Assembly (NCBI GenBank): GCA_964622835.1
Contig: CAZUSA010000001.1
Span: 159,468 to 223,467 of the forward strand
Direction: 5' to 3'
DNA: 64,000 nucleotides
Source: Candidatus Woesearchaeota archaeon
Lineage (GTDB): Archaea; Nanobdellota; Nanobdellia; SCGC-AAA011-G17; UBA489
How positions within the stretch are numbered: the stretch's first letter is position 1; every line of letters begins with the position of its first letter. Of the stretch, positions 5,904 through 54,547 are shown piece after piece. The position numbers were made by a program, and so were the translations under genes. Under the pieces are notes generated by a model that was not told the DNA's origin, ran no database searches, and saw only the letters and a list, made by a program, of their open reading frames with translations.

Positions 5904-6374
5904 ATGATAAATAAAAGAGGACAAGCTGCTATGGAGTTCTTGATGACCTATGGTTGGGCTCTGCTAGTTGTGCTTGTCGCTATAGGAGCGTTAGCTTTTT
6001 TCGGAGTATTAAACCCCGGACAATTCTTACCTTCGACCTGTACAATTACACCAGGAATTGCGTGTAATGACTTTAAGGTAGCGGAAGGGGGAACACCAAT
6101 AACAGGCACTGTAGATTTACGTTTACAGAATGGTTTTGGTGACAGTTTAACTACAGTCACAGTAGATATTGACATTGGCCAAGATGGAGCCAATGATTGT
6201 CCGCAATATACAAACGCAGCCTGGGCAGATGGTGCAGAATTATCTGTAGCAATGACTGGTTGTACAGTTGGCCCAAGTGGTGGCAAAGCAAAAGCTGATG
6301 TTATTGTTGGTTACACTGGAAGCGGTGGTATTTCACACGTTAAAACAGGCGTATTAGTTACACAAATTGAATAA
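5904..6374 (+). CDS. Archaeal type IV pilin-like protein with class III signal peptide
   Basis: MINKRGQAAMEFLMTYGWALLVVLVAIGALAFF is a prepilin-like N-terminus (basic residues, G/Q, Glu near +5, hydrophobic helix). GGAGG sits 10 nt upstream of ATG 5904. The ORF track starts earlier at 5808. Confidence 0.7.
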   Translation: MINKRGQAAMEFLMTYGWALLVVLVAIGALAFFGVLNPGQFLPSTCTITPGIACNDFKVAEGGTPITGTVDLRLQNGFGDSLTTVTVDIDIGQDGANDCPQYTNAAWADGAELSVAMTGCTVGPSGGKAKADVIVGYTGSGGISHVKTGVLVTQIE

Positions 6375-6467
6375 GGGGACATCCCCTTTTTCTTTCTTTT
6401 TTTTAATTACAATATAGGGTAACCTATCTCAATAATGTTTTTATAACGTCAATGCACACGTACGAGG

Positions 6468-7600: not shown

Positions 7601-7630
7601 TTTATAAACGTTCTACGGTACCAAAAGAAC

Positions 7631-10080: not shown

Positions 10081-10081
10081 C

Positions 10082-12792: not shown

Positions 12793-14848
12793 GAACATTA
12801 AATTACATAATATTCGCTCATATAAAACAGAAGAAGTTTCTTTTGAAGAAGGTTCTACATTATTATCTGGTAATATTGGTTCAGGTAAATCAACTATCCT
12901 CTTAGCTTTAGATTTTGTTTTGTTTGGTATTAGTAGAGATTTACCTGGAAGTGCATTGTTACGTAAAGGAGAAACAGAAGGAAGTGTTGAATTGCATTGT
13001 GTTATCAATGATAATGAGATTATTATTAAACGGGGATTAAAACGTACACCTACATCTGTCGGTCAAGAGACTGGTTTTATTATTAAGAATGATGAAAAGA
13101 AAGAACTTACCGCTATGGAATTAAAGCAAGAAGTGTTAACGTTATTGAATTATCCTCAAGAATTATTAACGAAGTCTAAATCTATGGTATACCATTATAC
13201 TGTCTACTCACCACAAGAGCGCATGAAGGATATTCTCCTAAGCAAGCGTGAAGAGCGTTTAGAGATCTTACGGCGTGTGTTTGGGATTGACAAGTACAAA
13301 CGTGTACAGAATAATACTGATATTTTTCTTACAGCATTAAAGCAAAAGTCTAAGGAAATTGCTGCGAGTATTGCTGATTTGGAACAAAAGAAAGAAGCAT
13401 TAGCTGAAAATAAAGAAAAGGAACAAGAAACAAAAACATTTCTTACATCGCTTGAACCTAAAATACTCACGTTACAAAACAAGATTGCAGAAAAGAAGAA
13501 GTTTATTGACGAACAGGAAAAACAACAACAAGTACACCAACAGAAGAAACATGAAAGAGAAAAATTACTCTTAGGTATTACCCATAAAAAAAGTGAGATT
13601 GTACGATTGCAAGAAGAAGAAACAAGAATAAAGAAAGAAATTGTTGATATAACACTATCTTTAGAAAAATTACCACTTGCTGATCCATCATTACAAGAAA
13701 GAATTACTATTTTAGATACTGAAATACAACAAGGCGAAAGTCAAGTAACAGCTATTGAAAGAAAAGTTATTGAGTTTACAACAGTAAAGAAAAGTAAAGA
13801 AACCGTATGTAATGATATTAATGCATTAGATGTTTGTCCAACGTGTAAACAAACGGTCGATGCAGATCATAAGAAACATATTACAAGTAATGAGTCTAAA
13901 GAGATTGAAAAGGTTGATCGTGAATTACAGGCATTACAGCGTGATCAAGAGTATCAACGACAAACACTTCTTGGGAAGAAAGAGGAACGAAAAAAGAAAC
14001 AAGAACAATTAAACGCACAACAAGTAGTTCAGATAAAGGATCAAGAAAAAAAGCAAAAGGAACTACAGGTTCAAAGTATCATTAAACAGAAAGGAGAAGC
14101 TGAACAGAGCCTATTAGGCGATAATCAAAGGATTAGCCAAGTAGAACAGGAATTACAACGTTTTCCTGAAAGTACAACTGAACTACAAGGATACAAGCAA
14201 GAACGCGATGTTATAACACAAGAATTAAAGGAAGTTGAATTACAACGTGCAGGTAAAGAAGCTGAATGTAAAGGGTTTGCTTCTATGATTCTCAGTTTAG
14301 AAGAAGAAATCACAAGAAAAAAGGTTGGGAAAGAAAACATTGCAAAATTATTACAGTTACGTGAGTGGTTAGAAAAACAATTCATGAGTATGATGGCCTT
14401 AATGGAAAAGAATTTATTGTTACGCGTTCATGGCGAGTTAGAGGAATTAATTAAGAAGTGGTTTGGTATGTTGGTTGATGAAGAAACAATGAAGATTAGA
14501 TTAGATGATGAGTTCACACCAATCATTGAACAGAATGAACATGAGATTGAATATGCTCATCTTTCTGGTGGCGAAAAAACAGCGGCTGCATTGTCATATC
14601 GGCTTGCATTGAATCAAGTGATTAACACATTAATGTCTGGTATTAACACCCGTAATATTTTAATGTTAGATGAACCAACAGACGGTTTTTCACAAGAACA
14701 GTTAGAACGTATGCGTAATATTTTAGAAGAGTTAAATACGAAACAAACGATTATTGTTTCTCATGATCCTAAGGTTGAAAGTTTTGTTGATCGTGTTGTT
14801 CGTTTAGAAAAAAAGGAACATCAGACGGTTGTTACTAAAACAATTTAA
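12782..14848 (+). CDS. rad50: Rad50 SMC-like ATPase
   Basis: Walker A GNIGSGKSTILLALDF. Long coiled coil with CPTCKQ zinc hook. Signature LSGGEKTAAALSYRLAL. D-loop MLDEPTDG. Start MRIKNIKLHNIRSY at 12782 overlaps the mre11 stop. Confidence 0.85.
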   Translation: MRIKNIKLHNIRSYKTEEVSFEEGSTLLSGNIGSGKSTILLALDFVLFGISRDLPGSALLRKGETEGSVELHCVINDNEIIIKRGLKRTPTSVGQETGFIIKNDEKKELTAMELKQEVLTLLNYPQELLTKSKSMVYHYTVYSPQERMKDILLSKREERLEILRRVFGIDKYKRVQNNTDIFLTALKQKSKEIAASIADLEQKKEALAENKEKEQETKTFLTSLEPKILTLQNKIAEKKKFIDEQEKQQQVHQQKKHEREKLLLGITHKKSEIVRLQEEETRIKKEIVDITLSLEKLPLADPSLQERITILDTEIQQGESQVTAIERKVIEFTTVKKSKETVCNDINALDVCPTCKQTVDADHKKHITSNESKEIEKVDRELQALQRDQEYQRQTLLGKKEERKKKQEQLNAQQVVQIKDQEKKQKELQVQSIIKQKGEAEQSLLGDNQRISQVEQELQRFPESTTELQGYKQERDVITQELKEVELQRAGKEAECKGFASMILSLEEEITRKKVGKENIAKLLQLREWLEKQFMSMMALMEKNLLLRVHGELEELIKKWFGMLVDEETMKIRLDDEFTPIIEQNEHEIEYAHLSGGEKTAAALSYRLALNQVINTLMSGINTRNILMLDEPTDGFSQEQLERMRNILEELNTKQTIIVSHDPKVESFVDRVVRLEKKEHQTVVTKTI

Positions 14849-16671
14849 TATTTTGCGTAGTCTGAGATCATTACTTCATCAATAATCCCATGGAAATAGC
14901 CACTAGCACCACCATTTGATCCTATTTGGAAGTTACTTGAAGCAAAGTCAAGAGTACCATCTCCTGTTGTTATAATCACAGGAGCACTACTAGGAACCAT
15001 GTTAACAAAACAGTTAAGGGTTTTTGTTGTACCATCATATTGTACAGCAACATGAGTCCAGGTATCATAAGGAACAACAGAACATCCAACATTTAATGCA
15101 GCATTATCAATATTAAGGGCAGCAAGCAACGTATGTGTTCCCGTACCAGAGTTGTATACTGTTCTAAATTGGTTAAGTGAACCTTTACTTGCCCAAAAAG
15201 AACCAACAGGTTCGCTGGTAAGATATAACCATGCTTCAACAGTTACTGAATCGGTTATAGTTGGATATGTTCCAGCTACAACAGTATCATCGACACCATC
15301 AAAGTATAATCCACCACCATATGCACCATCAATCCAGTATGGTTCTTTAATTGCTTGTTGTTGATCATAAAGATATTCCATTTGTTTAGCACTAAGGGGA
15401 CTATCATAAATAGCTACTTCATCCAGGTTGCCAAAGGTACCAGTCCAGGCCCCCACATCGTTAAATGCTCCGATTTGTGTATTAAGTCCGGACCAAGGAG
15501 CACTCATATCTGGTGTAAATATATCTGTGGGTTTTCCATCCACATAAAATTGACCAACACCATTTTTAATAGTAACACCAGCATGATGCCATCCACCATC
15601 AAAATAATTAGTAGGATCAGTATCATAGAAACTAACACCAAGACTATCAACAAAACGAAGTTTTGCAGTCTGAGTAATAAGAAGTCCATAATGGTTATTA
15701 TTAGTTTTACGTGCAAAGATATATCCACCACCCCAACTAGGATTTGCAAGAACTTTTGTCCATGCAGTAAGAGTAAAATCATCAACAAAATTTCCTGCAG
15801 TCTGCCCTATATTTACTGTATCACTTCTATCAGTAAAATCAAGATTATTACTTCCATCTGTATCCCCATCAAAATACAGTCCCCCTCCAGAGATACCACT
15901 GGACCAATCAGGACAACGCACTAGATCAGGACCTCCCGGACAAATGGATCCGAGAAAACCAAGATCTCCATTATACCCATTGCCACTACTGTCTGTTGCT
16001 GTGTCACCACTTCCTTCATCAAAATGATATACTACTTGAGCAGAATCAAAGTTTTGTAGTGTTCCAGGCGCAGATCCAAGACTATCACTGAGTGTTGTTC
16101 CACTAGCATCATCAAATTTGTATAAGGCGACGGTTGTTCCGGTTGGTATGTAACCATCACCATCACCTGGTGCAAAGCCATTACCGTCATCACTGCCGCC
16201 ACCAAAGCTTTGGCTGGTACCTCCAGCAACGATGGCGCTTAAACTGAATGCTTTGGTGTGTTCAATACTGCTATCTATTGTTTTGTAGGCAAAGGTTGGT
16301 GCGTCTTCAACAAAGTCTCCTTCGGTAAAGACCCCTTCACATCCGGTTACTGTAAATAATTTTTTTTGTCCATTTTTTAAACTGAGTGATGCTGATTGCA
16401 CACTACATGCAGGGTGGGAAAAGTAAAAGGATATGAGATCATCACCAAGTCCGTTTAAGACAGCAATGGTTATGGATCCTTCATCAGCAACAAAATCTAC
16501 ACAGGCAAATCCAGGTCCCATCAAACACGTTTCAGTTACAAAAAGATTATCACCAAAGCCAAAATAGAAACTTAAAGACGCAATAGCTAAAATAACAACG
16601 AGTAACGCCCACCCATAGGTCATCAAAAATTCCATGGCAGCTTGCCCTTTATTATGTATAGATGGGGCCAT
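14845..16671 (-). CDS. Pilin-like N-terminus fused to LamG/concanavalin-like lectin domains (surface adhesin candidate), paralog 1
   Basis: Class III signal KGQAAMEFLMTYGWALLVVILAIASL. LamG-like motifs (LYFDGDTDGS, GGLYFDGVDDTV). The ORF track extends to 16689 and overlaps the upstream paralog. Confidence 0.7.
   Translation of the reverse strand: MAPSIHNKGQAAMEFLMTYGWALLVVILAIASLSFYFGFGDNLFVTETCLMGPGFACVDFVADEGSITIAVLNGLGDDLISFYFSHPACSVQSASLSLKNGQKKLFTVTGCEGVFTEGDFVEDAPTFAYKTIDSSIEHTKAFSLSAIVAGGTSQSFGGGSDDGNGFAPGDGDGYIPTGTTVALYKFDDASGTTLSDSLGSAPGTLQNFDSAQVVYHFDEGSGDTATDSSGNGYNGDLGFLGSICPGGPDLVRCPDWSSGISGGGLYFDGDTDGSNNLDFTDRSDTVNIGQTAGNFVDDFTLTAWTKVLANPSWGGGYIFARKTNNNHYGLLITQTAKLRFVDSLGVSFYDTDPTNYFDGGWHHAGVTIKNGVGQFYVDGKPTDIFTPDMSAPWSGLNTQIGAFNDVGAWTGTFGNLDEVAIYDSPLSAKQMEYLYDQQQAIKEPYWIDGAYGGGLYFDGVDDTVVAGTYPTITDSVTVEAWLYLTSEPVGSFWASKGSLNQFRTVYNSGTGTHTLLAALNIDNAALNVGCSVVPYDTWTHVAVQYDGTTKTLNCFVNMVPSSAPVIITTGDGTLDFASSNFQIGSNGGASGYFHGIIDEVMISDYAKY
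16045..16647. repeat. 603-bp direct repeat, copy A (identical to 17861-18463)
   Basis: Codes the identical 201-aa N-terminal segment (GQAAMEF...GTLQNFD) of both pilin-LamG paralogs. The identical antisense ORFs in the track (16032-16229 and 17743-18045) confirm DNA identity. Confidence 0.85.
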
Positions 16672-18505
16672 CTGAAATACGCACCTCATCTATAATTCCT
16701 TTAAAGAATTGACCACTACCTGTCGATCCAAGGTACATATTGGTACCAGGTTGGAAATTTAATGTACCATTGTAAGGACATGTTTTGACAAGTTGTCCAT
16801 TCAGATACCCACTAATTCCAGATCCATTAAATTGTCCAACAACCTGCTGCCATTGATCTGGCGTTACTGCACCACCACCACCAAAGTTACAGTCAACTGT
16901 TTTAGTAGCTGTTGCATTTGCAATATTATAAGCAACATGGAAATTACCACCAAAAATACGCATTTCATTACCACCTTTTTTTAGGAAAAATTGGTTGTAA
17001 GTTGTTAAAGGATAGACCCATGCTTCTGTTGTTACATAGTCGCCAACAACAAAGTTATCTGCAATGGTAACAGTATCATCAACACCATCAAAGTGTAATC
17101 CACCACTATACGCACCATTAATCCAATATGGTTCATCGAGTGCTTGTTGCTGTTCAAAGAGGTACTCCATTTGGGCTGTTGAAAGAGGTGTGTCATAGAT
17201 GACAAATTCGTCCATGTTTCCGTAGGTACCTTGCCAACCATTCCCTCCATTCCATGCACCGATTTGTGAGATCCATCCATGCCCACCATTAAACATTGCA
17301 GGACTAAATGATGCACCACTAGGTTGACCATCAATATATATTTGTGAGCCAGTAACGCCACTACCGTTAATGACAACACCAATGTGATGCCAGTTACCAT
17401 CATAAAAGTTGAAGGGATCTGCCCAGTAAGAAAATAAAGAAACACCATCGGTGTCGATGAAGCGTGCTCGTGGAGGTAAACCATCATCAAGGTATAATTG
17501 ATAATGCATTTCATATTTTCTTCGGCCAAAGACCGTATGCCCAGAACCATAAGGATTATCAGAAAGTTTTATCCATGATGAAAGAGTAAATTTATCATTA
17601 CTAGAAAAGTCTGCAGTGCTAGCACCGATATCAACAAAATCACCCCTGTCAGTAAAATCGGAAGTACTAGCATCAGTATCACCATCAAAGTATAATCCAC
17701 CACCAGAGATACCACTAGACCACTCAGGACAACGAGTTATGTCTACCCCTGCAGGACAAACAGATTCTGTCGCCCCAAGGTCACCATTATATCCATTGCC
17801 ACTACTATCTGCGGTTGCATCACCATTACCTTCATCAAAATGGTACAGTGCATAAGAAGGATCAAAGTTTTGTAGTGTTCCAGGCGCAGATCCAAGACTA
17901 TCACTGAGTGTTGTTCCACTAGCATCATCAAATTTGTATAAGGCGACGGTTGTTCCGGTTGGTATGTAACCATCACCATCACCTGGTGCAAAGCCATTAC
18001 CGTCATCACTGCCGCCACCAAAGCTTTGGCTGGTACCTCCAGCAACGATGGCGCTTAAACTGAATGCTTTGGTGTGTTCAATACTGCTATCTATTGTTTT
18101 GTAGGCAAAGGTTGGTGCGTCTTCAACAAAGTCTCCTTCGGTAAAGACCCCTTCACATCCGGTTACTGTAAATAATTTTTTTTGTCCATTTTTTAAACTG
18201 AGTGATGCTGATTGCACACTACATGCAGGGTGGGAAAAGTAAAAGGATATGAGATCATCACCAAGTCCGTTTAAGACAGCAATGGTTATGGATCCTTCAT
18301 CAGCAACAAAATCTACACAGGCAAATCCAGGTCCCATCAAACACGTTTCAGTTACAAAAAGATTATCACCAAAGCCAAAATAGAAACTTAAAGACGCAAT
18401 AGCTAAAATAACAACGAGTAACGCCCACCCATAGGTCATCAAAAATTCCATGGCAGCTTGCCCTCTGGAAGATAATATAGAACGCTGTTTAAGACCACCT
18501 CTCAT
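16652..18505 (-). CDS. Pilin-like N-terminus fused to LamG/concanavalin-like lectin domains, paralog 2
   Basis: SSRGQAAMEFLMTYGWALLVVILAIASL. The N-terminal 201 aa after the signal are identical to paralog 1. The C-terminal LamG-like region has diverged (GGLHFDGVDDTV). Confidence 0.7.
   Translation of the reverse strand: MRGGLKQRSILSSRGQAAMEFLMTYGWALLVVILAIASLSFYFGFGDNLFVTETCLMGPGFACVDFVADEGSITIAVLNGLGDDLISFYFSHPACSVQSASLSLKNGQKKLFTVTGCEGVFTEGDFVEDAPTFAYKTIDSSIEHTKAFSLSAIVAGGTSQSFGGGSDDGNGFAPGDGDGYIPTGTTVALYKFDDASGTTLSDSLGSAPGTLQNFDPSYALYHFDEGNGDATADSSGNGYNGDLGATESVCPAGVDITRCPEWSSGISGGGLYFDGDTDASTSDFTDRGDFVDIGASTADFSSNDKFTLSSWIKLSDNPYGSGHTVFGRRKYEMHYQLYLDDGLPPRARFIDTDGVSLFSYWADPFNFYDGNWHHIGVVINGSGVTGSQIYIDGQPSGASFSPAMFNGGHGWISQIGAWNGGNGWQGTYGNMDEFVIYDTPLSTAQMEYLFEQQQALDEPYWINGAYSGGLHFDGVDDTVTIADNFVVGDYVTTEAWVYPLTTYNQFFLKKGGNEMRIFGGNFHVAYNIANATATKTVDCNFGGGGAVTPDQWQQVVGQFNGSGISGYLNGQLVKTCPYNGTLNFQPGTNMYLGSTGSGQFFKGIIDEVRISDGPIYT
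17861..18463. repeat. 603-bp direct repeat, copy B
   Basis: See copy A. Spacing 1816 bp. Confidence 0.85.
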
Positions 18506-30703: not shown

Positions 30704-32902
30704 ATGGCGAAGGATATGGTAGAAAGCGTTAAAGACTTAATGCGTAAGCCAGAACAAATCCGTAACATCGCTATTTGTGCTCATATCGACCATGGTAAAA
30801 CGACGTTTTCTGATAATCTTCTTGCTGGTGCTGGCATGCTATCAGAGGAACATGCAGGTAAACAATTAGCGTTAGATTTCCATGATGATGAACAAGCGCG
30901 TGGTATTACGATTGATTCTTCAAGTGTTTCTATGGTGCACACTGTTGATGATAAAGAGCATTTAATTAATTTAATTGACACACCTGGTCACGTTGATTTT
31001 GGTGGTGACGTTACTCGTGCTATGAGAGCTGTTGATGGATGTATTGTATTATGTGATGCTGTTGAAGGTATTATGCCTCAAACTGAAACGGTATTACGGC
31101 AAGCATTACGTGAACATGTGAAGCCTATTTTATTCATTAACAAAGTTGATCGTTTAATTCGTGAAGTAAAACTTACTCCTGAAGCAATGCAGGAACGATT
31201 CCTCAAGATTATTGGTTCTGTTAATGAGTTCATGGATAAGATTGTTCCTCCTGAACATAAGGGTAAGTGGAAAGTTGCTGTGCAAGATGGTTCTGTTTGT
31301 TTTGGTTCTGCGTTCCACAATTGGGCAATGAGTGTTGATTATATGCAGAAGAAAAAGATTTCTTTCAAAGATATTATTGACCATTACCAAGATGAAGATG
31401 ATAATAAATACAAAGAACTTGCAAAATTAGCTCCTTTACATGAAGTGGTATTAGGATCTGTTATCAAACACTTACCTAATCCTGTTACAGCTCAAAAGTA
31501 TCGTATTCCTAATATTTGGCATGGCGATGGTGATTCACCTGAAGGTAAAGCAATTACTAATTGTGATCCTAATGGCGAACCTGCATTTGTTTGTGTTAAA
31601 ATTGTTATTGATCCCCACATGGGTGAAGTGGCAGCGGGACGTATGTTTTCAGGCACGATTAAACAAGGTCAAGAAGTATATTTGAATGGCGCTAAAAAAA
31701 GTGTTCGTGTACAACAAGTAAGTATTTACAAAGGTGCACAACGTATGCAGATGGATGAGGTTGTTGCAGGTAATATTGTGGGTATTTCTGGATTGAAAGG
31801 TATTTTCTCTGGTGAAACTGTTTCAAGTAAACCTATCGAACCATTCGAAGCTATTTCACATATTTTTGAACCGGTTGTTACAAAGTCTATTGAAGCAATG
31901 AAGTCTGCTGACTTACCTAAACTTATTGAAGTATTACGTAAAGTGACAAAAGAAGATCCTTCTATTAAGATTGAGATTGATGAAAAGACGGGTGAAAATT
32001 TAATGCATGGTATGGGTGAGTTACACTTAGAAGTTATTGAAAACCGTATTAAGTCTGAAAAGGGTGTTGAAGTTAAAACATCTCCTCCTATTGTTATCTA
32101 CCGTGAGTCTATTACAAAAGTATCTCCTGAAACGGAAGGAAAGTCTCCTAATAAACATAATAAGTTTTACATTATTGCTGAACCGTTAAATGAAAAAATT
32201 GTTGAAGCGATTAAGGACGGCATTATTCCTGAAGGTCGTGTTAAGAAGAATGATAAGGTCTTATATGAAAAGTTAGACAAAGTTGGTGTTCCTGTAAAAG
32301 AGGGTAAGAAAATTCGGGATATTTGTAATGGTAACATCTTAGTTGATGGTACACGTGGTATCGTTCATATTGGTGAAGTGCAAGAGTTAATCAATGAAGG
32401 GTTTGAACAAGTGATGAAGCAAGGTCCGTTAGCAAAAGAACCGGGTATTAGTATGAAAGTTACGGTTATGGATACGAAATTACACGAAGATGCTATTCAT
32501 CGCGGTCCTGCACAAGTATTACCTGCTGTTCGTGCTGCAGTAAAAGGTGCTATGACGCAAGCAACACCGGTTATGTTTGAGCCAATGCAGATTATTCAAA
32601 TTGACGCTCCTCATGAAAATATGGGTGATATGTCTGGTCTTATTTCTAATAAGCGTGGTCAATTACTTGAGATGAATCAAGAAGGTGATCAAATTGTGTT
32701 AAAGGCAAAGTTACCTGTTGCTGAAATGTTTGGTTTGAGTAATGAGATTCGTTCGATGACGTCTGGTCGAGGTAATTTCTTTTTGATTGATCAAGATTAT
32801 GAACGGTTACCACGTGAATTGCAACAAAAGATTATTACGTCTATTCGTAGTCGTAAAGGTTTGAAGGATGAAGACTTCAAAGAAGAAGGCGAAGAAGAAT
32901 AA
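30704..32902 (+). CDS. fusA: Elongation factor 2 (aEF-2)
   Basis: 732 aa. G-domain AHIDHGKTT, DTPGHVDF, NKVDR. C-terminal diphthamide region HRGPAQ. Confidence 0.95.
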   Translation: MAKDMVESVKDLMRKPEQIRNIAICAHIDHGKTTFSDNLLAGAGMLSEEHAGKQLALDFHDDEQARGITIDSSSVSMVHTVDDKEHLINLIDTPGHVDFGGDVTRAMRAVDGCIVLCDAVEGIMPQTETVLRQALREHVKPILFINKVDRLIREVKLTPEAMQERFLKIIGSVNEFMDKIVPPEHKGKWKVAVQDGSVCFGSAFHNWAMSVDYMQKKKISFKDIIDHYQDEDDNKYKELAKLAPLHEVVLGSVIKHLPNPVTAQKYRIPNIWHGDGDSPEGKAITNCDPNGEPAFVCVKIVIDPHMGEVAAGRMFSGTIKQGQEVYLNGAKKSVRVQQVSIYKGAQRMQMDEVVAGNIVGISGLKGIFSGETVSSKPIEPFEAISHIFEPVVTKSIEAMKSADLPKLIEVLRKVTKEDPSIKIEIDEKTGENLMHGMGELHLEVIENRIKSEKGVEVKTSPPIVIYRESITKVSPETEGKSPNKHNKFYIIAEPLNEKIVEAIKDGIIPEGRVKKNDKVLYEKLDKVGVPVKEGKKIRDICNGNILVDGTRGIVHIGEVQELINEGFEQVMKQGPLAKEPGISMKVTVMDTKLHEDAIHRGPAQVLPAVRAAVKGAMTQATPVMFEPMQIIQIDAPHENMGDMSGLISNKRGQLLEMNQEGDQIVLKAKLPVAEMFGLSNEIRSMTSGRGNFFLIDQDYERLPRELQQKIITSIRSRKGLKDEDFKEEGEEE

Positions 32903-32928: not shown

Positions 32929-33681
32929 CTAATCACTAGGGACGCCTGCTGCATTTGCAAAGGCCTGATTATCATAAAAAGATATTTTCACATTAGGTTC
33001 TGTTGGCCAGTAACCCTGAATGTAAGGAAAAGGTGATGCAAAAACAGTAAAAAATAGATTATCATCAAAATCTAAACTAATGTAACGCCCTGTTTGTGGT
33101 TCAATAAACACGGCACCGAGTGCACCATCAATAAGAACTGTAACAGCTGTATGTGCATAAAGAGGTTCTTGCGTTATTTCATCATAAACAACAAAATGTG
33201 CATATCCTGCGTTGTATCCTTTTTGCCATTCTAAAAATTGTTCTAAATCCGTAGCAAAATCATCGCAGTCATTGGTAACAGGTGTGTATGTCATACTTGC
33301 AACACCGCTTTCAGCAATATCTTGAGGCAACGTTGCAAGTGAAGGATGATCCTCTGGATTTACACCAACAGGAATAGGAATAAGTGTTCCAGAACTTACA
33401 GATGTATCATTATCAAAGGGAGTACAATGCTGTATTGCACCACCTTGTAATCGACATTGTTGTGCATTAATAGTAGAAAAACAGGTAGCATCAGGATGAC
33501 CATATACTCCTTGCGTACAACAGACAGTACTGCCAGGTGCGTGTGTTAAGGGTGGACTCGTTGTTGCTGTAGGCATGCGACCACCGCTAGGAGATATAAC
33601 AGTTTGTGCAAAAACCAATGAACTCATCATCAACATAACAAAGAGTAATACACTAAACCATTGGATAATATGTGATTTCAT
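32929..33681 (-). CDS. Hypothetical secreted protein
   Basis: 250 aa. Signal peptide MKSHIIQWFSVLLFVMLMMSSLVFAQT. Thr/Pro-rich linker and a Cys-containing domain. Confidence 0.5.
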   Translation of the reverse strand: MKSHIIQWFSVLLFVMLMMSSLVFAQTVISPSGGRMPTATTSPPLTHAPGSTVCCTQGVYGHPDATCFSTINAQQCRLQGGAIQHCTPFDNDTSVSSGTLIPIPVGVNPEDHPSLATLPQDIAESGVASMTYTPVTNDCDDFATDLEQFLEWQKGYNAGYAHFVVYDEITQEPLYAHTAVTVLIDGALGAVFIEPQTGRYISLDFDDNLFFTVFASPFPYIQGYWPTEPNVKISFYDNQAFANAAGVPSD

Positions 33682-33876: not shown

Positions 33877-35295
33877 ATGGCAGAACACTACACGAGTGGA
33901 AGTGGAGAAACACATCAAGTGTATGCACCAACAAGACGTAGATTGATAGCTGTTGCTGGTCTTGTGGGGTTAACATTAGCTTCCCCACTTGCTCGCGCTT
34001 CACAAGTTGCAAATGTACTTGTAAAAAGTGATCCAAAAATATCAAAAACCAATGATGAAAATAGTCGTGAAAAACAAACTGATTTAGAACATAAATTACA
34101 ATCGGACCTGCAAGCCATTTATATGGATACTGAAGGATTTCTACAACAATTAGATAAACAAAAGTATAAAAAATTATCAAAAGATGAAATGCAAGCAGAA
34201 GCAAAATATTTGACAGAGTTATCCCTTCATATGGGAATGCCTCATCTGAGAGGGTTATTATGGTATCATGCATGTGAAAGATTAGATACACAAGCAGTCT
34301 TAGATACCTTAGTTAAACATATTACACCTCCCGAAGAAGAGAGGATAACAGCATTCGAAGAAGGGTATGCATTTGAAGGAGTGGGTTTGATAGGTTGTGG
34401 CTCATCAAAAAAAGTAACTAAAGAACAACGCAAAGCACTTGCAGAGGTACTACAACCAAGAAAAGGCGTGCCAGACTATATTAACATTTCAGCATTACGT
34501 GCAGGAGCTCTTGTTGGACAAACGTATAAAAAGGAAGAACAAAAAGCATTACTTGAAAAATATTATAGATATCTTGAAGAAGCTGTTAAAGAACCGCACC
34601 AATTAGATCTCAGAGAGACAGAAGAAACACATATATCAGACCACACTTTAGAACATTTGTTGTGGACGTGTGGAAGCATGGACGGTATAGGTGGTTTACA
34701 AGATGAATTAAGAGACAGAAAACTTACAAAAGATAATAGAATAAAAAAAATATTAGACAGTGGCGAACCAATTCCAACCTTTAAAACCGTAAGAGATCCA
34801 TTGAAAAATTTATATGATGCCTGGAAAGATCATGGAAAAAGGCAAAGAAAAAGAAATACATGGGGTTCTGTTAAGATAGCAGGTAAAGAGGATTACGAAG
34901 ATAATTTTAGAACAATGATGGATGCTACACGTAGCGATATTAAACATTTTTTACAAGTAGTTGCAAAAACAATAAGTTTGGGAGAAATAACTGGCATGTC
35001 TGGAAATGCAAGCCCTGGTTCAAGAACAATTCGCCTACCAACAAACCTACTTAAAACAAGAGACCCGAAAGGTTTGGTAGCTTCATTAACACACGAAGCA
35101 ACACATCTTTTGGATGTGATTTATGGCACATACCAAGAAGGAAAACCATCCCACTACAAAGAAGAATCACCATTTGTAACAGCTATCACTACAGAGAACA
35201 TCATGGACCAATCAAAACACTCACCTAGTGCAAGTATACTACACAATAGATTAATTCGTAAATTAAAAAAACAACACTGGAAAAAACACTGGTAA
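33877..35295 (+). CDS. Hypothetical protein with twin-arginine-like signal (TRRRLIAVAGLVG...ARAS) and HExxH motif
   Basis: 472 aa. RR motif followed by a hydrophobic stretch and AxA. LTHEATHLLD is an HExxH; a Glu sits 14 residues after the second His (gluzincin-like spacing?). Otherwise unrecognised. Confidence 0.5.
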   Translation: MAEHYTSGSGETHQVYAPTRRRLIAVAGLVGLTLASPLARASQVANVLVKSDPKISKTNDENSREKQTDLEHKLQSDLQAIYMDTEGFLQQLDKQKYKKLSKDEMQAEAKYLTELSLHMGMPHLRGLLWYHACERLDTQAVLDTLVKHITPPEEERITAFEEGYAFEGVGLIGCGSSKKVTKEQRKALAEVLQPRKGVPDYINISALRAGALVGQTYKKEEQKALLEKYYRYLEEAVKEPHQLDLRETEETHISDHTLEHLLWTCGSMDGIGGLQDELRDRKLTKDNRIKKILDSGEPIPTFKTVRDPLKNLYDAWKDHGKRQRKRNTWGSVKIAGKEDYEDNFRTMMDATRSDIKHFLQVVAKTISLGEITGMSGNASPGSRTIRLPTNLLKTRDPKGLVASLTHEATHLLDVIYGTYQEGKPSHYKEESPFVTAITTENIMDQSKHSPSASILHNRLIRKLKKQHWKKHW

Positions 35296-35312: not shown

Positions 35313-38111
35313 TTAAATTGGTGTTGAAGGAGGACCATTACCAGGTCCAGGTCCATCACCACCTCCACTTTTTTTACCACCACATGCACAACAACTTATT
35401 GGATCTGTAGGATTACCAAAACCACCTGCACAGAAACCAACACCATCAGAACAGAAATCTGTACAATCTGCATCAGATACACATTCAGGCCTATTACCAC
35501 AAGTACTTGTAATTTCATCACCTGGTTCAACAATAATAGGACCACCACCACCACCAGTATCATCTGGTGGATCTGGAGGTATACCGGGACATTGGTTGTT
35601 CCAACCATCACACTCACACGCTGTACCTGAACAATCAGGCGGTACGCCTGTCGGTTTGTCACCATCACCTATACAACCATTGGTGGGATCACCACAATTA
35701 GGACTACAACATACAGGGTCAGGCGGGATATTACAATTAACCTGTGGGGGTCCGCCAAGTTGGATGCACTCTGATGTGTCACAAAACTCACAGGTACTTA
35801 CATCATATGCAGAACAGTCATTATTACACTGCAAAACACCATTACACAATTGTACAACGCCTTGTAATAAAAAGTCATTACAGTTATTACCGAGGGTATC
35901 TGTTGGCGGTGTACCACTAAATGCACCAGGATCGCATACTTCCCCTGGTTCTATTTGGCCATTCCCACAAACAGATGGAGGCGGAGGTGTTCCTGATAAT
36001 GTACAATCATTATTACAACCATCATTATTGTTACCATTTCCATCATCACATTGTTCACCAAATTCTATAACACCATTACCACATCCAGGTACGACAATTA
36101 TTTTTTTTGTTGAAACTACATCTTTTAATCCCGCGTAATAGCCATATTGGCCAGTGATTGCAGGAGGGTAAACATCACAGTGTTTTGCTGTTCCACTGTT
36201 TGCTTGATAACCACATATTTGTGTACCAATGCACGTTTCAGTAGCAGTATTATAGCCTGAGTTATCACATATTTTTACAGTCCCTTTCAGATAGGTATTG
36301 GGATACCAGTTTGTTTCCCAGATACTTGCTTTTGTAAAAGAACCAGGTTGCACGGTATAAGTTGTCATTTTCAAAGTTAACGTTGTATATGTACAATCTG
36401 CATCACAACCGGTTATTCCATCATTGATAGTGTCACCATCATCACAGTGTTCTGCTCCTTCTATAACACCATTCCCACATATTCCAGGACCGCCTTCTGT
36501 TTGACAGCTACTGTCACAGCCATCGCCGTTTGCTGTATTCCCATCATCGCATGTTTCACCTGCTTCAAGAACATTATTTCCGCAGGCACCAATAACACCG
36601 CATGTACAATCTATTTGACAGTATCCTGGACAAGCAGTATCATCTGCTCCATCACATTGTTCGCCACCTGCTGGTTCATAATTATTATTACCACAAAAGT
36701 AGGTTCCGCCAAAGTTACACACAGTGTTATCTGTTGAATCATAATCACATGCATCTCCACAACTGTCGCCGTCTGCGTTTGCTTGGTTGGGTGGTGTGCT
36801 ACATTTTTCTACAAGAACACCATTAGTTGTTTTTCCCGCACAATCTGCATTGCTGGTACAAACAATGTCTGCATCAAAGGGATTGAGACTTGGATCAGGA
36901 TTGGATGATGTACTAACAGTTACACAGGTTCCTTTCAAGACACCGTTGGGATGGAGTGGACAATTATCTAGCCCAGGACAACTACCCCCTGGTAAACAAT
37001 TTCCTAAACCGTCTCCGTCTGCATCATCAGGACCATAACAGGTACATAAACTAGTACAACTGGATAGTCCACAAAGAGCATCATCTGCTCCATCACATTG
37101 TTCACCGTTACTTGTTTCTTGTATACCGTTACCGCAAATGTTTGCACCAACACATGCACTGTCACCATCACATGCACTATCTGCACAGTCTGTTAGGCCA
37201 TTACAATTATTATCTTTGGTGTCTCCACATGTTGTTGGGAAACTTACACCTTCACCAGCTAGTGTATTAATCTGATCATTAGTGTCATCGCAGTCTACGT
37301 TACCACATGATGAACTGTAGAAGTATTCTTCTCCATCACCATCTGCATCACACGTGTTACAAACACCTAAACTACAGTATTCTCCACTGTCACAATCACT
37401 ATCACTTTCACATCCTAAACAAATACCTGATCCACTTGAAGTATCGCAGTTACCATAGGGACAGTCACCGTCAACGGTACAACTAAAAGAACATGCACCA
37501 TCACTGCCAGGTAGACCGCATCCTATGAGTGCAGGGTCCACAGGATTGCTATCATACACACAAAAGTTATCATCGTCACATGTTGCAGTATATCCTGCGG
37601 TCATGTCTTGACAGTCACTTGCGTCATCACAGTATTCACATTGTTCGCCACCAGTAACTAATCCATCGCCACATTCTTGGAAAACAATTTGTCCGTTGGT
37701 TCCATCATTAAAGAGTGTTAAATAGTGAATACCTTTATTTAATAAAAAGTCTAAACTGCCACCGACGAAATAATCCATTTCAAATTGGTCGACTGTTCCA
37801 CCGTAATTTATGGTAATGACTTTACATTGTGTTGTGCCATCTGAGAGTGCATCTGTACATTGATCGAACTGTGCACTTTCTATGTTAGGAACATTAACAA
37901 CAATGGTATCCGAACTACCACTGCCTAAATTACTTAATGATTCAACGACGTTATCTAGTGTATTAACAGTATCGGTCATATAGGGACTTTGTGTTTTCCC
38001 TTGGGATAAGAAGAATAACAGCGGTATGAGAAGAACAAGAATAATTCCCGTAAGAACCATTTGTTCGGTTGCTGCTTGCGCTCGTCGCGCACTACCCCTT
38101 TTGCGAACCAT
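35313..38111 (-). CDS. Giant Cys-rich repeat surface protein with pilin-like class III signal peptide
   Basis: 932 aa. N-terminus KRGSARRAQAATEQMVLTGIILVLLIPLLFF parallels the RGQAAMEFLMTYGWALLVV of the pilins. At least 4 Myxococcus-type repeats (CGNNVLEAGETCDDGNTANGDGCDSSC, CGNGVIEGAEHCDDGD, CGNGVIEFGEQCDDGNGNNNDGC, CGNGQIEPGEVCD). Thrombospondin-3-like Asp-rich Ca-binding stretches (DADGDGEEY). About 13% Cys. Confidence 0.75.
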   Translation of the reverse strand: MVRKRGSARRAQAATEQMVLTGIILVLLIPLLFFLSQGKTQSPYMTDTVNTLDNVVESLSNLGSGSSDTIVVNVPNIESAQFDQCTDALSDGTTQCKVITINYGGTVDQFEMDYFVGGSLDFLLNKGIHYLTLFNDGTNGQIVFQECGDGLVTGGEQCEYCDDASDCQDMTAGYTATCDDDNFCVYDSNPVDPALIGCGLPGSDGACSFSCTVDGDCPYGNCDTSSGSGICLGCESDSDCDSGEYCSLGVCNTCDADGDGEEYFYSSSCGNVDCDDTNDQINTLAGEGVSFPTTCGDTKDNNCNGLTDCADSACDGDSACVGANICGNGIQETSNGEQCDGADDALCGLSSCTSLCTCYGPDDADGDGLGNCLPGGSCPGLDNCPLHPNGVLKGTCVTVSTSSNPDPSLNPFDADIVCTSNADCAGKTTNGVLVEKCSTPPNQANADGDSCGDACDYDSTDNTVCNFGGTYFCGNNNYEPAGGEQCDGADDTACPGYCQIDCTCGVIGACGNNVLEAGETCDDGNTANGDGCDSSCQTEGGPGICGNGVIEGAEHCDDGDTINDGITGCDADCTYTTLTLKMTTYTVQPGSFTKASIWETNWYPNTYLKGTVKICDNSGYNTATETCIGTQICGYQANSGTAKHCDVYPPAITGQYGYYAGLKDVVSTKKIIVVPGCGNGVIEFGEQCDDGNGNNNDGCNNDCTLSGTPPPPSVCGNGQIEPGEVCDPGAFSGTPPTDTLGNNCNDFLLQGVVQLCNGVLQCNNDCSAYDVSTCEFCDTSECIQLGGPPQVNCNIPPDPVCCSPNCGDPTNGCIGDGDKPTGVPPDCSGTACECDGWNNQCPGIPPDPPDDTGGGGGPIIVEPGDEITSTCGNRPECVSDADCTDFCSDGVGFCAGGFGNPTDPISCCACGGKKSGGGDGPGPGNGPPSTPI

Positions 38112-38193
38112 GTATCTATTTCATGATCAAATTCATTTAAAAAGGTTGAGGTCTAGGTGGTTGTAAGAATACTCTCGAGAAAGCCTACCACAA

Positions 38194-38206
38194 GCTTTAT
38201 AAATCG
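38194..38206 (+). promoter_or_regulatory. BRE/TATA-like gctttataaatcg upstream of EF-1alpha
   Basis: Same ctttataaa core as the other operon-internal promoters. Confidence 0.4.
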
Positions 38207-38255
38207 TTTTCAGGTTACGATTCATACGCACTCAAGGGAGTAATATTACAATAAA

Positions 38256-39542
38256 ATGGCAAAAGAAAAACCGCATATGAATGTTATTTTCGTCGGTCAT
38301 GTTGACCACGGAAAATCGACGACTGTAGGTCGCCTCATGTTTGATTCAGGTAACGTAGATGAGCAGGCTATGAGAAAGTTAAAGGAAAAAGCGCAAGAAC
38401 TTGGTAAAGCTGGGTTTGAGTTTGCGTTTGTTATGGATAATCTTAAGGAAGAGCAAGAACGTGGCGTTACGATTGATCTTTCATACAAGAAGTATATGTC
38501 CCAAAAATATGAAGCAACGATTATTGATGCTCCTGGGCACAGAGATTTTGTTAAAAATATGATTACTGGTTCATCCCAAGCTGATGTTGCATTTTTAGTT
38601 GTTGCAGCTACTGAAGGGGTTATGGAACAAACGAAAGAACACTTATGGTTACTAAAAACACTTGGTGTTAGCCAAATTTGTGTGTTAGTTAACAAGATGG
38701 ATACCGTGAAGTACGATGAAGCGAAATTCAAGGAAGTACAAGAAGGTATTACAAAGTTAATTAAGACTGCTGGATATGATCCTGCAAAGGTTACCTTTAT
38801 TGCTGGTAGCGCTTTACAAGGGGATAATATTTTCAAGAAATCTGAAAACATGAGTTGGTACACAGGTCCAACCGTTGGTGAGCAGATTGATAAGTTCGAC
38901 GAACCGGAAAAACCAAAGGATTTACCTTTGCGTTTACCAATTCAGGATGTGTATAACATTTCTGGTATTGGTGTTGTTCCTGTTGGCCGTGTTGAAACGG
39001 GTACGATGAAGGTTGGACAAAAGATTGTCTTCGTTCCTGGCCGTGAAGGGAAAGGCGTTCCTGGTGAAGTCAAGTCTATTGAAATGCACCATGAACAAGT
39101 TCAAGAAGCTATTCCTGGTGACAACATTGGATTTAACGTTCGTGGTATTGGTAAGAAAGATATTGCACGTGGTGACGTCCTTGGTGACGCTGCAAACCCA
39201 CCGACGATTGTTAGTGAGTTTACTGCTCGTGTGATGATTTTGAATCATCCTACTGTTGTAACACAAGGCTATACGCCGGTGTTCCACATCCATACAGCAC
39301 AAGTTGCCTGTCAATTTTCTGCATTAAAGCAGCAATTAGATCCTGCAACCGGTGACGTTCTGAAGGAAAACCCAGACACCTTAAAGACAGGTGACGCTGC
39401 AGTTATCCAGATGATACCAACGAGACCAGTTGTTATTGAAAAGTTTAGTGAGATTCCTCAAATGTCGAAGTTCGCTATTCGTGATGCTGGTGCAACCGTT
39501 GCTGCTGGTATGTGTATTGATTCTGTAAAGAAAACAGCCTAG
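38256..39542 (+). CDS. tuf: Elongation factor 1-alpha (aEF-1A)
   Basis: 428 aa. [21 protein letters not shown]. Confidence 0.95.
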
Positions 39543-40459: not shown

Positions 40460-41182
40460 TTGAGAAAAGACATATATGTCTCAAAGAGATTATATGATAT
40501 GGATTTTTCAATACGAAATAAACAAAATGTAGAGAGTAGGTGGAGAAAGGTTCATGAAAAAGAAAGAGCATACATTAGAGATAATAAAGAAAAGACAAAG
40601 CATTTTAGGGCAAGAATATGTGGATTTTTAGCAGGAGATGGGAATCTCCTTATTGCAGGAAAAAACAACAAACACCATAACACAGTACGATTTTTTCCAG
40701 ACCATCATTCACTAATAAAACCATATATCGAGGCTACATTAAAGGTCTACAATAAAAAACCAAAAATAATAAAGAAGAAAAATTATTATTGTTTAAATAT
40801 TGATTCAAAACCAATGGTTGAGGATATTTTATCTACAACAACGTTAGGAACCAGCACATGGAGTATTCCAAAAAGTTTGAAAAGTAATAATGAAAAAATT
40901 GAGTGGTTACGAGCGTTCTTTGATGCTGAAGCCTATGTTCATCAAAAATATATCAGAGTTCAATCAGTGAATGGAGAGGGATTAAAAGAAGTAAAAGAGC
41001 TATTAGGAGACTTGAACATATATTCAAAGATTTACGAATATATGCCTAAACAAAAAAATCATAAAAAAGTCTATATGCTAACAATAATAAGAAAAAAGGA
41101 TAAGTTACATTATAAGTCCCTCATAGGATTTAACCATACAACAAAACTTAAAAAGCTAAATTTTACACTTCAAACAAGATAA
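40460..41182 (+). CDS. Free-standing double-motif LAGLIDADG homing endonuclease
   Basis: 240 aa. Motif 1 ICGFLAGDGNLLIA. Motif 2 LRAFFDAEAYVHQ. Lys-rich. Stop is 4 nt before the tRNA at 41187. Confidence 0.75.
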   Translation: MRKDIYVSKRLYDMDFSIRNKQNVESRWRKVHEKERAYIRDNKEKTKHFRARICGFLAGDGNLLIAGKNNKHHNTVRFFPDHHSLIKPYIEATLKVYNKKPKIIKKKNYYCLNIDSKPMVEDILSTTTLGTSTWSIPKSLKSNNEKIEWLRAFFDAEAYVHQKYIRVQSVNGEGLKEVKELLGDLNIYSKIYEYMPKQKNHKKVYMLTIIRKKDKLHYKSLIGFNHTTKLKKLNFTLQTR

Positions 41183-52810: not shown

Positions 52811-54547
52811 TTGAAGTTTTTTAAAGGGCAAAAATATGCAACTTGTATGCCCCTAAACAAGGAACAATTTGCAGAACTAATAGCTCAAAAAGCAGATCCG
52901 AAGATGTCTAAACAGGCGTTTCAAACATTAAAACAACGCGTGGCTCATCAATTAGCATTAACACACGTTCCTAAGAATACTGAAATACTTTTTGCGTTAA
53001 AGAAGAAGGATCGTGAACGCTTACATACATTACTTGTTTCCAAGCCAACGAGAACAATGTCCGGCGTAGCACCAGTTGCTATTATGAGTGCTCCTATTGC
53101 ATGCCCTCCTCAAGCATTATGTACGTATTGTCCTGGTGGTCCAAAGTCTATTTTTGGTGATGTTCCTAAGAGTTATACTGATGGTGCTCCAGCTGTTAAA
53201 AGAGCTATTCGTAATAAGTATGATCCCTATTTGCAGGTGTTTAATCGGTTAGAACATTATCATTTACTAAACCAGTGTCCAACAAAAGTGGAATTGATTG
53301 TTATGGGTGGTACGTTTCCTTCATTTGAAAAAGCATATCGTGATGTGTTTATTGCACGTGCGTTACAAGCGATGAATGATTTTAGTACAATGTTTTACAC
53401 ACAAAAAGGCACATTAGATGAAACAAAGTTTCGTGATTTTTTCTTATTAGATTTATCGTATGCTGATAAAGAACGTGAAAAAATTATTATTAAGCGTATG
53501 GAAGCATTGCGTGATTTAAAAAAACCTACAGTACTTGATGAACAAACAAATAATGAAACGGCACGTATTCGTTGTATTGCATTGGTTATTGAAACACGTC
53601 CTGATTGTGCAACACAAAAAGAGATTGATGAGATGTTGCGATATGGAACAACACGTGCAGAGATTGGTGTACAGAGTTTACGTGATCATGTATTGAAACG
53701 CATTAAGCGCGGTCATGATGTAGCAACAACGATTACAGCTACACAAGAATTACGTGATGCATTATTTAAAATTACGTATCATATGATGGTCGGTCTTCCT
53801 GAAACAACGAAAGAAACGGATATTCAAGAAGGAAAACAGTTGTTTGATGATCCACGGTTTCGTCCTGATTCGTTAAAGGTATATCCTTGCATGGTGATGG
53901 CTGGCACTCCGTTATATGAAGAATACAAAAAGAAATTATTCACACCGGTCACAACTGATGAAGCGATGGAACGTATTATTGAGTGGAAAAAAACAATTCC
54001 TGAATATTGCCGTATTATGCGTGTACAGCGCGATTTACCGACATATATGACTGAAGCGGGTGTTGACAAAACTAATTTACGGCAGTTAATGCATAATAAG
54101 AAAATTGTCTGCAGATGTATTCGTTGTCGTGAACCAAAAGAACAAACAGTTGATTTTGATAATGTTACAACGAAAGTAATAACGTATGAAGCATCGGGTG
54201 GTACAGAATGTTTTATTGCAAAAGAAGATGTTACGAATGATTTGTTGTTAGGATATGCTCGTTTGCGTATTCCGTTTAAGCCTGTTCGTAAGGAAATTAC
54301 ATCGACAAGTGCTGGTATTCGTGAGTTACATGTATTTGGCACTGCATTAGATATGCAGAAGAAGCCAACGAAAGAAGTGCAACATCGTGGGCTTGGAAAA
54401 GAACTAATGGAAGAGGCTGAAAAGTTAGCGCGTGAAACGTATGATAAGAAGAAGATGGTTGTTATTGCTGGTTTGGGTGTTCGCGAATATTATAAGAAAC
54501 AATTACAGTATATTCAAGAAGGCCCGTATGTTTCTAAGAAGATTTAA
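52811..54547 (+). CDS. elp3: Elp3-family radical SAM / GNAT tRNA modification enzyme
   Basis: Radical-SAM cluster motif CTYCPGGP. Conserved Elp3 blocks (IMRVQRDLPT, HMMVGLPET). C-terminal acetyltransferase domain. Confidence 0.85.
   Translation: MKFFKGQKYATCMPLNKEQFAELIAQKADPKMSKQAFQTLKQRVAHQLALTHVPKNTEILFALKKKDRERLHTLLVSKPTRTMSGVAPVAIMSAPIACPPQALCTYCPGGPKSIFGDVPKSYTDGAPAVKRAIRNKYDPYLQVFNRLEHYHLLNQCPTKVELIVMGGTFPSFEKAYRDVFIARALQAMNDFSTMFYTQKGTLDETKFRDFFLLDLSYADKEREKIIIKRMEALRDLKKPTVLDEQTNNETARIRCIALVIETRPDCATQKEIDEMLRYGTTRAEIGVQSLRDHVLKRIKRGHDVATTITATQELRDALFKITYHMMVGLPETTKETDIQEGKQLFDDPRFRPDSLKVYPCMVMAGTPLYEEYKKKLFTPVTTDEAMERIIEWKKTIPEYCRIMRVQRDLPTYMTEAGVDKTNLRQLMHNKKIVCRCIRCREPKEQTVDFDNVTTKVITYEASGGTECFIAKEDVTNDLLLGYARLRIPFKPVRKEITSTSAGIRELHVFGTALDMQKKPTKEVQHRGLGKELMEEAEKLARETYDKKKMVVIAGLGVREYYKKQLQYIQEGPYVSKKI

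Follow-up and report, generated by a model that had tools for sequence, protein, structure and literature searches.

In bacteria, more than 1,200 modular pilins, in 264 architectures, join a pilin module to a grafted effector (PMC8179133). In Streptococcus sanguinis, PilB, which carries a von Willebrand factor A (vWA) module, has been shown to be an adhesin, and PilC carries a concanavalin A (ConA)-like lectin module (PMC8179133). Raynaud et al. proposed that modular pilins are exposed at the filament tip, with a location in the filament body also conceivable where the linker is flexible; their survey was built on the bacterial signature IPR012902 and does not mention archaea (PMC8179133). Here we analyze a gene on the minus strand at 35313..38111 of a 64-kb stretch of archaeal DNA (contig CAZUSA010000001.1; the whole stretch is called the window below). 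Those of its relatives that carry a name belong to Candidatus Woesearchaeota and come from marine samples. The 932-amino-acid (aa) product of the gene resembles PilB and PilC, and also CofB and GspK, in combining a class III signal, a small pilin module and a bulky functional module, and it shares with the bacterial modular pilins a conserved carrier and a variable effector. It differs from them in having an archaeal Q(+1)-type signal (PF04021/EppA type) in place of the IPR012902 N-methylation motif, and its effector is a ∼780-aa multimodule cysteine-rich stalk, whereas theirs is one globular domain.

At archaeal prepilin sites, position -1 is Gly, Ala or Ser and position -2 is charged; the peptidase EppA requires Gln at +1, and Glu at +5 is conserved in its substrates (PMC4371748). 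The Epd pilins of Methanococcus maripaludis (PF04021, DUF361, UPF0333) are cut at RA↓QI and KG↓Q(V/L/I) sites (PMC4371748, Table 1). The 932-aa protein is like them in its RA↓Q/KG↓Q-type site with +1 Gln and +5 Glu, and small relatives of its module are found in loci with one ATPase gene and two platform genes, the "system 1" (Epd-like) type IV filament (TFF) layout of methanogens and DPANN archaea (bioRxiv 10.64898/2026.04.22.720090). Unlike the Epd pilins, it is about six times longer, falls below detection with PF04021, is encoded away from a TFF locus and has no N-x-S/T sequons, compared with 1 to 7 in Epd pilins (PMC4371748). The Sulfolobus bindosome is built from class III-signal sugar-binding proteins that are four or more times as large as a pilin, are processed by PibD and are put together by a dedicated PilB/PilC pair (PMC4371748). 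Those proteins, too, are large and extracellular with a prepilin-type site, but they acquired the signal only, whereas the protein described here has a complete pilin module including the globular domain.

In TraA of Myxococcus xanthus, extracellular cysteine-rich tandem repeats have been proposed to serve as a rigid stalk, held by disulfide bonds, on which a recognition domain is displayed (PMC3325183). We rejected TraA as a family relative because its repeats belong to TIGR04201, which has no match in the 932-aa protein, and not to TIGR02232; with its N-terminal PA14 domain and C-terminal MYXO-CTERM tag it also has the opposite polarity, and we use it as an analogy only. The diatom adhesive trail protein Ca5255, from the adhesive trail proteome, carries DUF4215/IPR011936 repeats, the same repeat family as in our protein. 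Our literature searches, which were incomplete in coverage, turned up no account of a fusion between pilins and cysteine-rich repeats in archaea or DPANN. An earlier reading of this DNA from sequence only (the sequence-only reading) had taken the architecture to be undescribed. However, bacterial modular pilins are documented (PMC8179133), and fusions of the module recur in dozens of archaeal representatives. A pilin module at aa 1 to 149 followed by TIGR02232/DUF4215 repeats at aa 510 to 706 is the make-up of a modular pilin, as that term has been defined for bacteria, although the IPR012902 motif used in that definition does not apply to archaea. The carrier-plus-effector design is thus already known from bacteria and common in related archaea, and the protein is a variant of it and not a new kind.

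Gene and class III signal

The open reading frame (ORF) is real, with its stop codon at 35313-35315, and public collections contain an identical protein (P0001), encoded on a 293-kb contig. Three codons upstream of M1 there is an in-frame stop, which leaves no alternative start, so that the leader is exactly MVRKRGSARRA, followed by QAATEQMVLTGIILVLLIPLLFFL. A prepilin peptidase is predicted to cut off this basic leader (aa 1 to 11, 38079..38111; the minus strand applies to all segments of the gene), which has Arg at -2, Ala at -1 and a Gln at +1 that is invariant in the family. The site R10-A11↓Q12 thus combines the -1 and -2 residues of archaeal prepilin sites with the +1 Gln and +5 Glu of EppA substrates (RA↓QAATE, within Q12-A-A-T-E16-Q-M-V-L20). 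The predicted mature N terminus with its hydrophobic α1-N helix (aa 12 to 36, QAATEQMVLTGIILVLLIPLLFFLS; 38004..38078) also has Gly at +11 and Pro at +19.

In a 10-sequence family alignment of the N-terminal module (A1), Gln12 (+1) and Gly22 (+11) are invariant, only Gly or Ala occurs at -1, and Lys, Arg or Asn at -2. Position +5 is Glu in 6 of the 10 sequences, and the other 4 have Asp at +4 or +5. Both Q12 and G22 are conserved at ≥90% in 62 long relatives (≥300 aa), while in 48 small relatives the +1 Gln is invariant and the Glu is conserved at ≥90%. When the window was translated in six frames, the motif with a hydrophobic tail was seen 4 times, compared with 0.023 in shuffles, and all 4 instances are N termini of real ORFs, the others lying near 5919 (plus strand), 16647 (minus) and 18463 (minus). 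A hydropathy scan places the sole hydrophobic segment of the protein at its N terminus (aa 11 to 41) and shows no C-terminal anchor. The prepilin-like class III N terminus of the sequence-only reading is borne out by the RA↓QAATE site, its +1 Gln and +5 Glu, their conservation in the family and the presence of the same kind of N terminus in three other proteins of the window.

A complete pilin module

The signal opens a pilin module that spans aa 1 to 149 (37665..38111) and comprises the class III signal, a predicted long helix and a predicted six-stranded β domain with an invariant Cys85-Cys96 pair, as delineated from A1, hhalign, a hidden Markov model (HMM) and AlphaFold2 (AF2). The first ∼150 aa are common to P0003, P0007, P0009, P0010 and P0039 and, more loosely, to P0005, P0012, P0018 and P0019. 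Identity of the module is 43 to 62% across the 10 proteins of A1 and 41 to 61% in the family by BLAST, and the most conserved part of the family is the region past the hydrophobic stretch, TQ(S/T)PYMTD...VESLSNLGxGS.

A word-indexed search with aa 1 to 146 returned one fragment only, and an exhaustive profile search was therefore needed, which with A1 as the query matched 249 proteins at E ≤ 1e-3. Beyond ∼14 close relatives, these are mostly small (130 to 150 aa), Cys-free archaeal proteins that start MKGQxSxEY, and 48 such small Cys-free proteins of DPANN archaea from this search form a second alignment (A2). A1 and A2 align in hhalign with 99.6% probability (E 6e-25, 137 columns) in a span that takes in signal, helix and globular domain and has an LGxGS...V.V.(I)P.G motif in common. 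Applied directly to the 932-aa protein, the A2 HMM scores 62.9 bits over profile positions 5 to 139; the other three class III proteins of the window match it over the signal and helix only. About half of the A2 proteins (25 of 48) match PF04021, "Class III signal peptide," and members are named "class III signal peptide-containing protein" (Nanoarchaeota or Pacearchaeota) by NCBI or, in one case, "UPF0333 family" by JGI. The A2 profile also reaches the solved archaellin filament subunit of Haloarcula marismortui (9v96/9xtb, E 1.2e-4), which is its sole PDB match.

AF2 modeling on A1 gave a mean predicted local distance difference test score (pLDDT) of 76 overall, but 49 to 68 over the first 40 residues. 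The model shows a 54-residue helix (aa 9 to 62) with a kink close to residue 40 and a sheet of six strands, together giving a pilin-like "lollipop" shape. A structure search with the modeled module against the PDB returned no significant match to solved pilins (best Foldseek E 0.06), and no sequence or fold similarity to bacterial pilins was detectable.

The genomic context of the small relatives connects the module to filament machinery. On two longer contigs (L010 and L011), an A2-type pilin gene comes first in a same-strand cluster and is followed by further class III-like ORFs, a T2SSE ATPase gene and two T2SSF platform genes; a short contig (L009) shows the start of the cluster only, with the A2-type pilin gene and the class III-like ORFs after it. 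L010 also encodes a stand-alone pilin, divergent beside the TFF operon, that is 46% identical to a 156-aa pilin of the window at 5904-6374. By analogy with the Epd and bacterial systems, the major subunit is probably the pilin that stands alone, and the A2 type encoded in the operon is probably a minor pilin. That the N terminus of the 932-aa protein is a complete pilin module, beyond a mere signal, is well supported by the profile comparisons and the genomic context of the small relatives. The same holds for the proposal of the sequence-only reading that a pilin anchor carries a disulfide-rich extracellular body, which draws its support from the homology and from the genomic context of the relatives.

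Cysteine-rich body

The protein contains 90 Cys (9.7%), 14.5% Gly and 10.8% Asp. Its ∼780-aa body holds 87 of the Cys residues, and the mature protein has a net charge of about -116. The sequence-only reading described a giant protein whose remaining 900 aa consist of Myxococcus-type repeats, thrombospondin-3 (TSP3)-like calcium-binding loops and many CxxC pairs, a description that holds in part. TIGR02232 (Myxococcus cysteine-rich repeat) scores 57.1 bits, well above its cutoff of 20.8, and DUF4215 scores 27.0 bits, which is its cutoff, with the best stretch at aa 675 to 703. Tested unit by unit, aa 510 to 541 (44.3 bits), aa 545 to 574 (26.6 bits) and aa 677 to 706 (40.8 bits) all pass for TIGR02232, a fourth unit at aa 715 to 730 (19.3 bits) falls just under the cutoff, and the CGNG-like starts at aa 147, 326 and 473 have no TIGR02232 match when tested singly. 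With only three to four bona fide units, the named repeats make up ∼15% of the body and the rest is Cys-rich of other kinds; the first 149 aa are pilin module and not repeats. The TSP3-like loops did not hold up: the best candidate segment scores 8.2 bits (E 2.7) for TSP_3 (PF02412), whose cutoff is 25, the full protein has no match at E ≤ 1, and only two DADGDG motifs are present. There are five CxxC pairs rather than many, and at 932 aa the protein is large rather than giant. Its acidity does no more than suggest calcium binding by the body.

The body can be divided into segments of different character. The proximal stalk (aa 150 to 345, 37077..37664) is collinear and conserved in the family (BLAST, A3 alignment of 12 family members), with ∼24 of its 25 Cys at invariant positions. 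It ends in a DNNCNG...DC motif of the MopE/acidic-disulfide type, for which NF033662 gives a weak 19.7 bits, and PF11617 is a precomputed match in homologs P0009 and P0010. Next comes an Asp-/Cys-rich segment (aa 346 to 472, 36696..37076) with DADGDG and DNCP...NADGDSCGDACD motifs, which is common to a paralog in the window. A block at aa 473 to 574 (36390..36695) then combines a CGNN-type variant at aa 473 with the first two TIGR02232 repeats by per-unit score. The following segment (aa 575 to 676, 36084..36389) is by composition Cys-poor and β-rich and is unique to this protein; it has no Pfam match at E ≤ 5, no homolog alignment covers it, and it is possibly a ligand-binding domain. Beyond it, the TIGR02232 repeat at aa 677 to 706 and the partial one at aa 715 to 730, with a PPPP linker between them, occupy 35877..36083. 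The C-terminal region (aa 746 to 932, 35316..35876) is rich in Cys, Pro and Gly (23 Cys, 25 Pro), has no family match and shows, by composition and hydropathy scan, no C-terminal membrane anchor or sorting tag.

The paralog, encoded at 54544-57372 on the minus strand, is a Cys-rich protein of 942 aa (TIGR02232, 29.6 bits) that is 35% identical to aa 147 to 465 of the 932-aa protein. It has an ordinary N-terminal signal, a C-terminal transmembrane (TM) anchor with a basic end and no pilin module, so that one genome presents stalks of this kind in two different ways.

Both proteins are also depleted of sequons. The 932-aa protein has 0 compared with 10.1 expected from residue shuffles, and 0 of 20,000 shuffles were as low, a significance that is overstated because many Asn residues have their sequence context set by the repeat motifs. 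A single sequon is present in each of the paralog (10.1 expected), P0010 (20.9 expected) and P0005 (9.7 expected), and near-total absence was also recorded for homologs P0019 and P0144. Cytoplasmic controls showed no depletion (RpoA, 5 versus 4.3 expected; EF-1alpha, 2 versus 1.3 expected).

Family, genomic slot and distribution of the design

The narrow family was found at 4 loci among 185,579 species-representative genomes, all of them in Woesearchaeota metagenome-assembled genomes. In the window, the gene lies between those for elongation factors EF-2 (30704-32902) and EF-1alpha (38256-39542), within an rpoB-rpoA-S12-S7-EF2-EF1a-S10 cluster. It divergently adjoins EF-1alpha in 8 of 8 related loci with DNA (L001 to L008) and in the gene table for P0012, with EF-2 on the opposite side wherever the contig reaches that far; the more distant member P0039 is located elsewhere. 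The divergent intergenic region shared with EF-1alpha (38112..38255, 144 bp) has A/T-rich TATA-like boxes toward both genes, assigned by eye only: TTTAAAAA lies ∼25 to 35 nucleotides (nt) from the ATG of the pilin-module gene and CTTTATAAATC ∼50 to 60 nt from that of EF-1alpha. For the former gene, the short distance between box and ATG suggests that the transcript has a short leader or none.

Within the family, the first 170 to 250 aa of the stalk are collinear at 33 to 41% identity (BLAST), and the distal parts diverge, giving total lengths of 662 to 1432 aa with LamG, Hint and MopE-type modules. In L004, a very large ORF with a signal-like N terminus (5835-10097, plus strand; >1,421 aa, running off the contig end) follows the pilin-module gene on the same strand, indicating that the variable slot can hold more than one giant surface protein.

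A wider census covered 142 valid profile matches among archaeal cluster representatives, of which 57 do not exceed 200 aa and 47 reach at least 400 aa. Cysteine contents of ≥6% were found in 34 of the 62 long relatives defined above. By Pfam, these 62 carry Laminin_G_3 (13 proteins), DUF4215 (10), Big_13 (8) and the MopE motif (5), and NHL, PKD, MG2 and sialidase-N occur in 1 to 2 each. What is new here is a narrow Woesearchaeota family of modular pilins in a fixed slot divergent from EF-1alpha, in which the pilin module and proximal stalk are conserved, the distal modules vary and sequons are almost entirely absent.

Proposed mechanism and alternative explanations

On balance, we favor the view that the protein is a modular minor-type pilin that is cut at Ala11↓Gln12, enters an Epd-like filament, likely at the tip, and displays a disulfide-rich acidic stalk, and we consider this probable without holding it firmly. 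The protein would be inserted through Sec, and an EppA/PibD-type prepilin peptidase would remove the 11-residue basic leader. The mature helix, with its +1 Gln, +5 Glu, +11 Gly and +19 Pro, and the β domain (aa 12 to 149) would then insert into a type IV filament; its assembly would be the work of Epd-like "system 1" machinery whose genes lie elsewhere in the genome. A position at the filament tip would be most likely, since a bulky 780-residue body could hardly pack along the shaft. There the subunit would present an elongated, disulfide-stapled and highly acidic stalk with a conserved proximal part, and the lineage-variable distal modules would contact another cell or surface. Adhesion is suggested by the acidity of the body and, by analogy, by the precedents of the TraA stalk and the DUF4215 repeats of Ca5255. 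Cleavage, entry into a filament, tip location, disulfide formation, adhesion and host attachment are all inferred, and the protein is a plausible attachment protein.

Several observations weigh against a filament subunit of this kind. PF04021 matches neither the full protein nor its isolated N terminus, even at E ≤ 10, and other pilin profiles likewise have no match to the N terminus at that threshold. The PF04021 model is 27 positions long and its sensitivity therefore low, and the link of the protein to this family is transitive, through the small relatives noted above and 12 of the 62 long ones. The A1 profile reaches no PDB chain. AF2 modeling of the proximal stalk (aa 150 to 345, 12-sequence alignment) was poor, with a pLDDT of 50 and a predicted template modeling score of 0.33, and since this model is unusable, the elongated form of the stalk is argued from composition and repeats. 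Archaeal pilins and surface proteins are usually N-glycosylated, and this one is free of sequons. The gene stands amid translation genes, away from any TFF locus; no Peptidase_A24, TFF ATPase or platform gene was found among the scanned ORFs of the window, and neither pilus machinery nor a prepilin peptidase adjoins the gene in any of the 8 related loci. Class III-signal proteins of Sulfolobus, moreover, can form surface assemblies that are not pili, namely the bindosome.

These points bear most directly on the idea of a membrane-tethered or bindosome-like surface protein that uses the class III N terminus, cleaved or not, as an anchor and never enters a filament. The absence of adjacent pilus machinery in all 9 contexts and the position amid translation genes would fit such a protein, as would the destination of the large class III-signal proteins of Sulfolobus, which go to the bindosome and not to a pilus (PMC4371748), and the paralog at 54544-57372, which shows a similar body on a C-terminal TM anchor without a pilin module. 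What makes us regard it as unlikely, while still allowing it some weight, is that homology to the pilins of TFF operons covers the whole 149-aa module with its globular β domain, whereas the bindosome shares the signal only, and that a globular part kept at 41 to 61% identity is hard to explain for a mere anchor. If the protein is instead taken into a filament, it might be a structural subunit that polymerizes along its length, with the Cys-rich bodies forming an outer sheath as in sheathed archaella. The only PDB match of A2 is indeed a 463-aa Haloarcula archaellin whose extra domains sheath the core (PMC13357602), and Raynaud et al. allow for a body location given a flexible linker (PMC8179133). 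We nevertheless judge a sheath improbable: a 780-aa body with a charge of about -116 on every subunit would be sterically and electrostatically unfavorable, the separate small pilin of the TFF-flanking type in the same organism is the likelier major subunit, and the relatives of the module are first genes of minor-pilin-like operons.

It is very improbable, in our view, that the protein is an ordinary Sec substrate that signal peptidase I cleaves past its hydrophobic region (e.g., after SQG38) and that is then released or loosely bound, with a role in the extracellular matrix or in metal binding. Ser36 and Gly38 do fit the -3/-1 small-residue rule, TIGR02232 and DUF4215 occur mostly in bacterial proteins with ordinary signals or lipoprotein-like N termini, and there is no C-terminal anchor. 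However, the would-be signal peptidase I site is not conserved, and relatives have Q, H, K, V, T or M at the aligned positions, whereas no variation is seen in the [GA]↓Q site that precedes the hydrophobic stretch. The stretch itself, at ∼25 residues, has the length of a TM or α1-N helix and not of an h-region, and the region that follows it, the most conserved of the family, aligns to the pilin globular domain.

The modular minor-pilin reading can be extended into a bolder proposal, which taken as a whole we regard as doubtful. The EF-2/EF-1alpha slot in a marine Woesearchaeota clade might be a dedicated, rapidly diversifying tip-adhesin cassette, in which the minor-pilin carrier and proximal stalk stay constant and the distal Cys-rich repeats, LamG, Hint and MopE modules are swapped between lineages. 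The distal modules would set host or partner specificity, the divergent promoter region would be shared with the highly expressed EF-1alpha gene, and the lack of sequons would keep glycans from masking a disulfide-rich binding surface.

Other genes in the window

The motif scan identified three further class III proteins in the window. The stand-alone pilin of 156 aa (5904..6374, plus strand; MINKRG↓QAAMEFLMTYGWA...) is likely the major-pilin type of the same organism. Two tandem modular pilins of ∼615 aa (14845..18505, minus strand) join a class III signal of the major-pilin type to Laminin_G_3 (110 and 121 bits) and are the archaeal counterpart of PilC in the window. Their ORFs (14845-16689 and 16652-18505) overlap by ∼38 nt, and the visible N-terminal ∼76 residues are identical from the GQAAMEF cleavage motif on, which points to recent duplication or gene conversion. 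Both also show weak, subthreshold matches to the haloarchaeal TafC fimbrial protein family.

Directly downstream of the pilin-module gene and convergent with it, 33877-35295 (plus strand) encodes a 472-aa protein with a Tat-like N terminus (TRRRLIAVAGLVGL...ARA), a HEATH (HExxH) motif and a weak SprT-like match (E 0.02), which by these features may be a secreted metalloprotease. We considered it as a conserved partner or processing protease and rejected this, as BLAST shows no similarity between it and the 461- and 489-aa proteins that occupy its position in L002, and L001 lacks it. Between it and EF-2, 32929-33681 (minus strand) encodes a 250-aa protein with a Sec signal, a Cys cluster and a weak Agglutinin_C match (E 0.024), another small secreted protein of the variable slot. 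Farther away, 2625-4907 (minus strand) encodes a 760-aa protein with a Sec-like signal, a CGNNIINQGESCD motif near its N terminus and no Pfam family; a 19-aa stretch of it is 58% identical to a repeat of the 932-aa protein, which may make it the third protein in a surface repertoire with Cys repeats. Two free-standing LAGLIDADG homing-endonuclease-like ORFs (40460-41182 and 61687-62223, both on the plus strand) adjoin ribosomal protein and RNA polymerase subunit genes.

Implications

The finding leaves the understanding of type IV filaments unchanged and should be a moderate surprise to specialists. If the cassette proposal were true, archaea would have, on a pilus, their own counterpart of TraA and other polymorphic receptors for cell recognition. 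DPANN archaea are believed to live in attachment to other cells through contact molecules that are mostly unknown, and the Woesearchaeota are uncultivated. The protein is a concrete candidate for such attachment, a predicted pilus subunit with its own putative adhesive stalk, and the modular pilin strategy to which it belongs is widely used in DPANN, with one module carrying lectin, Ig-like, DUF4215 and metal-binding-motif modules. Surveys could take the conserved N-terminal module together with the fixed slot next to EF-1alpha as a handle for retrieving the variable distal parts in metagenomes and for relating them to co-occurring hosts.

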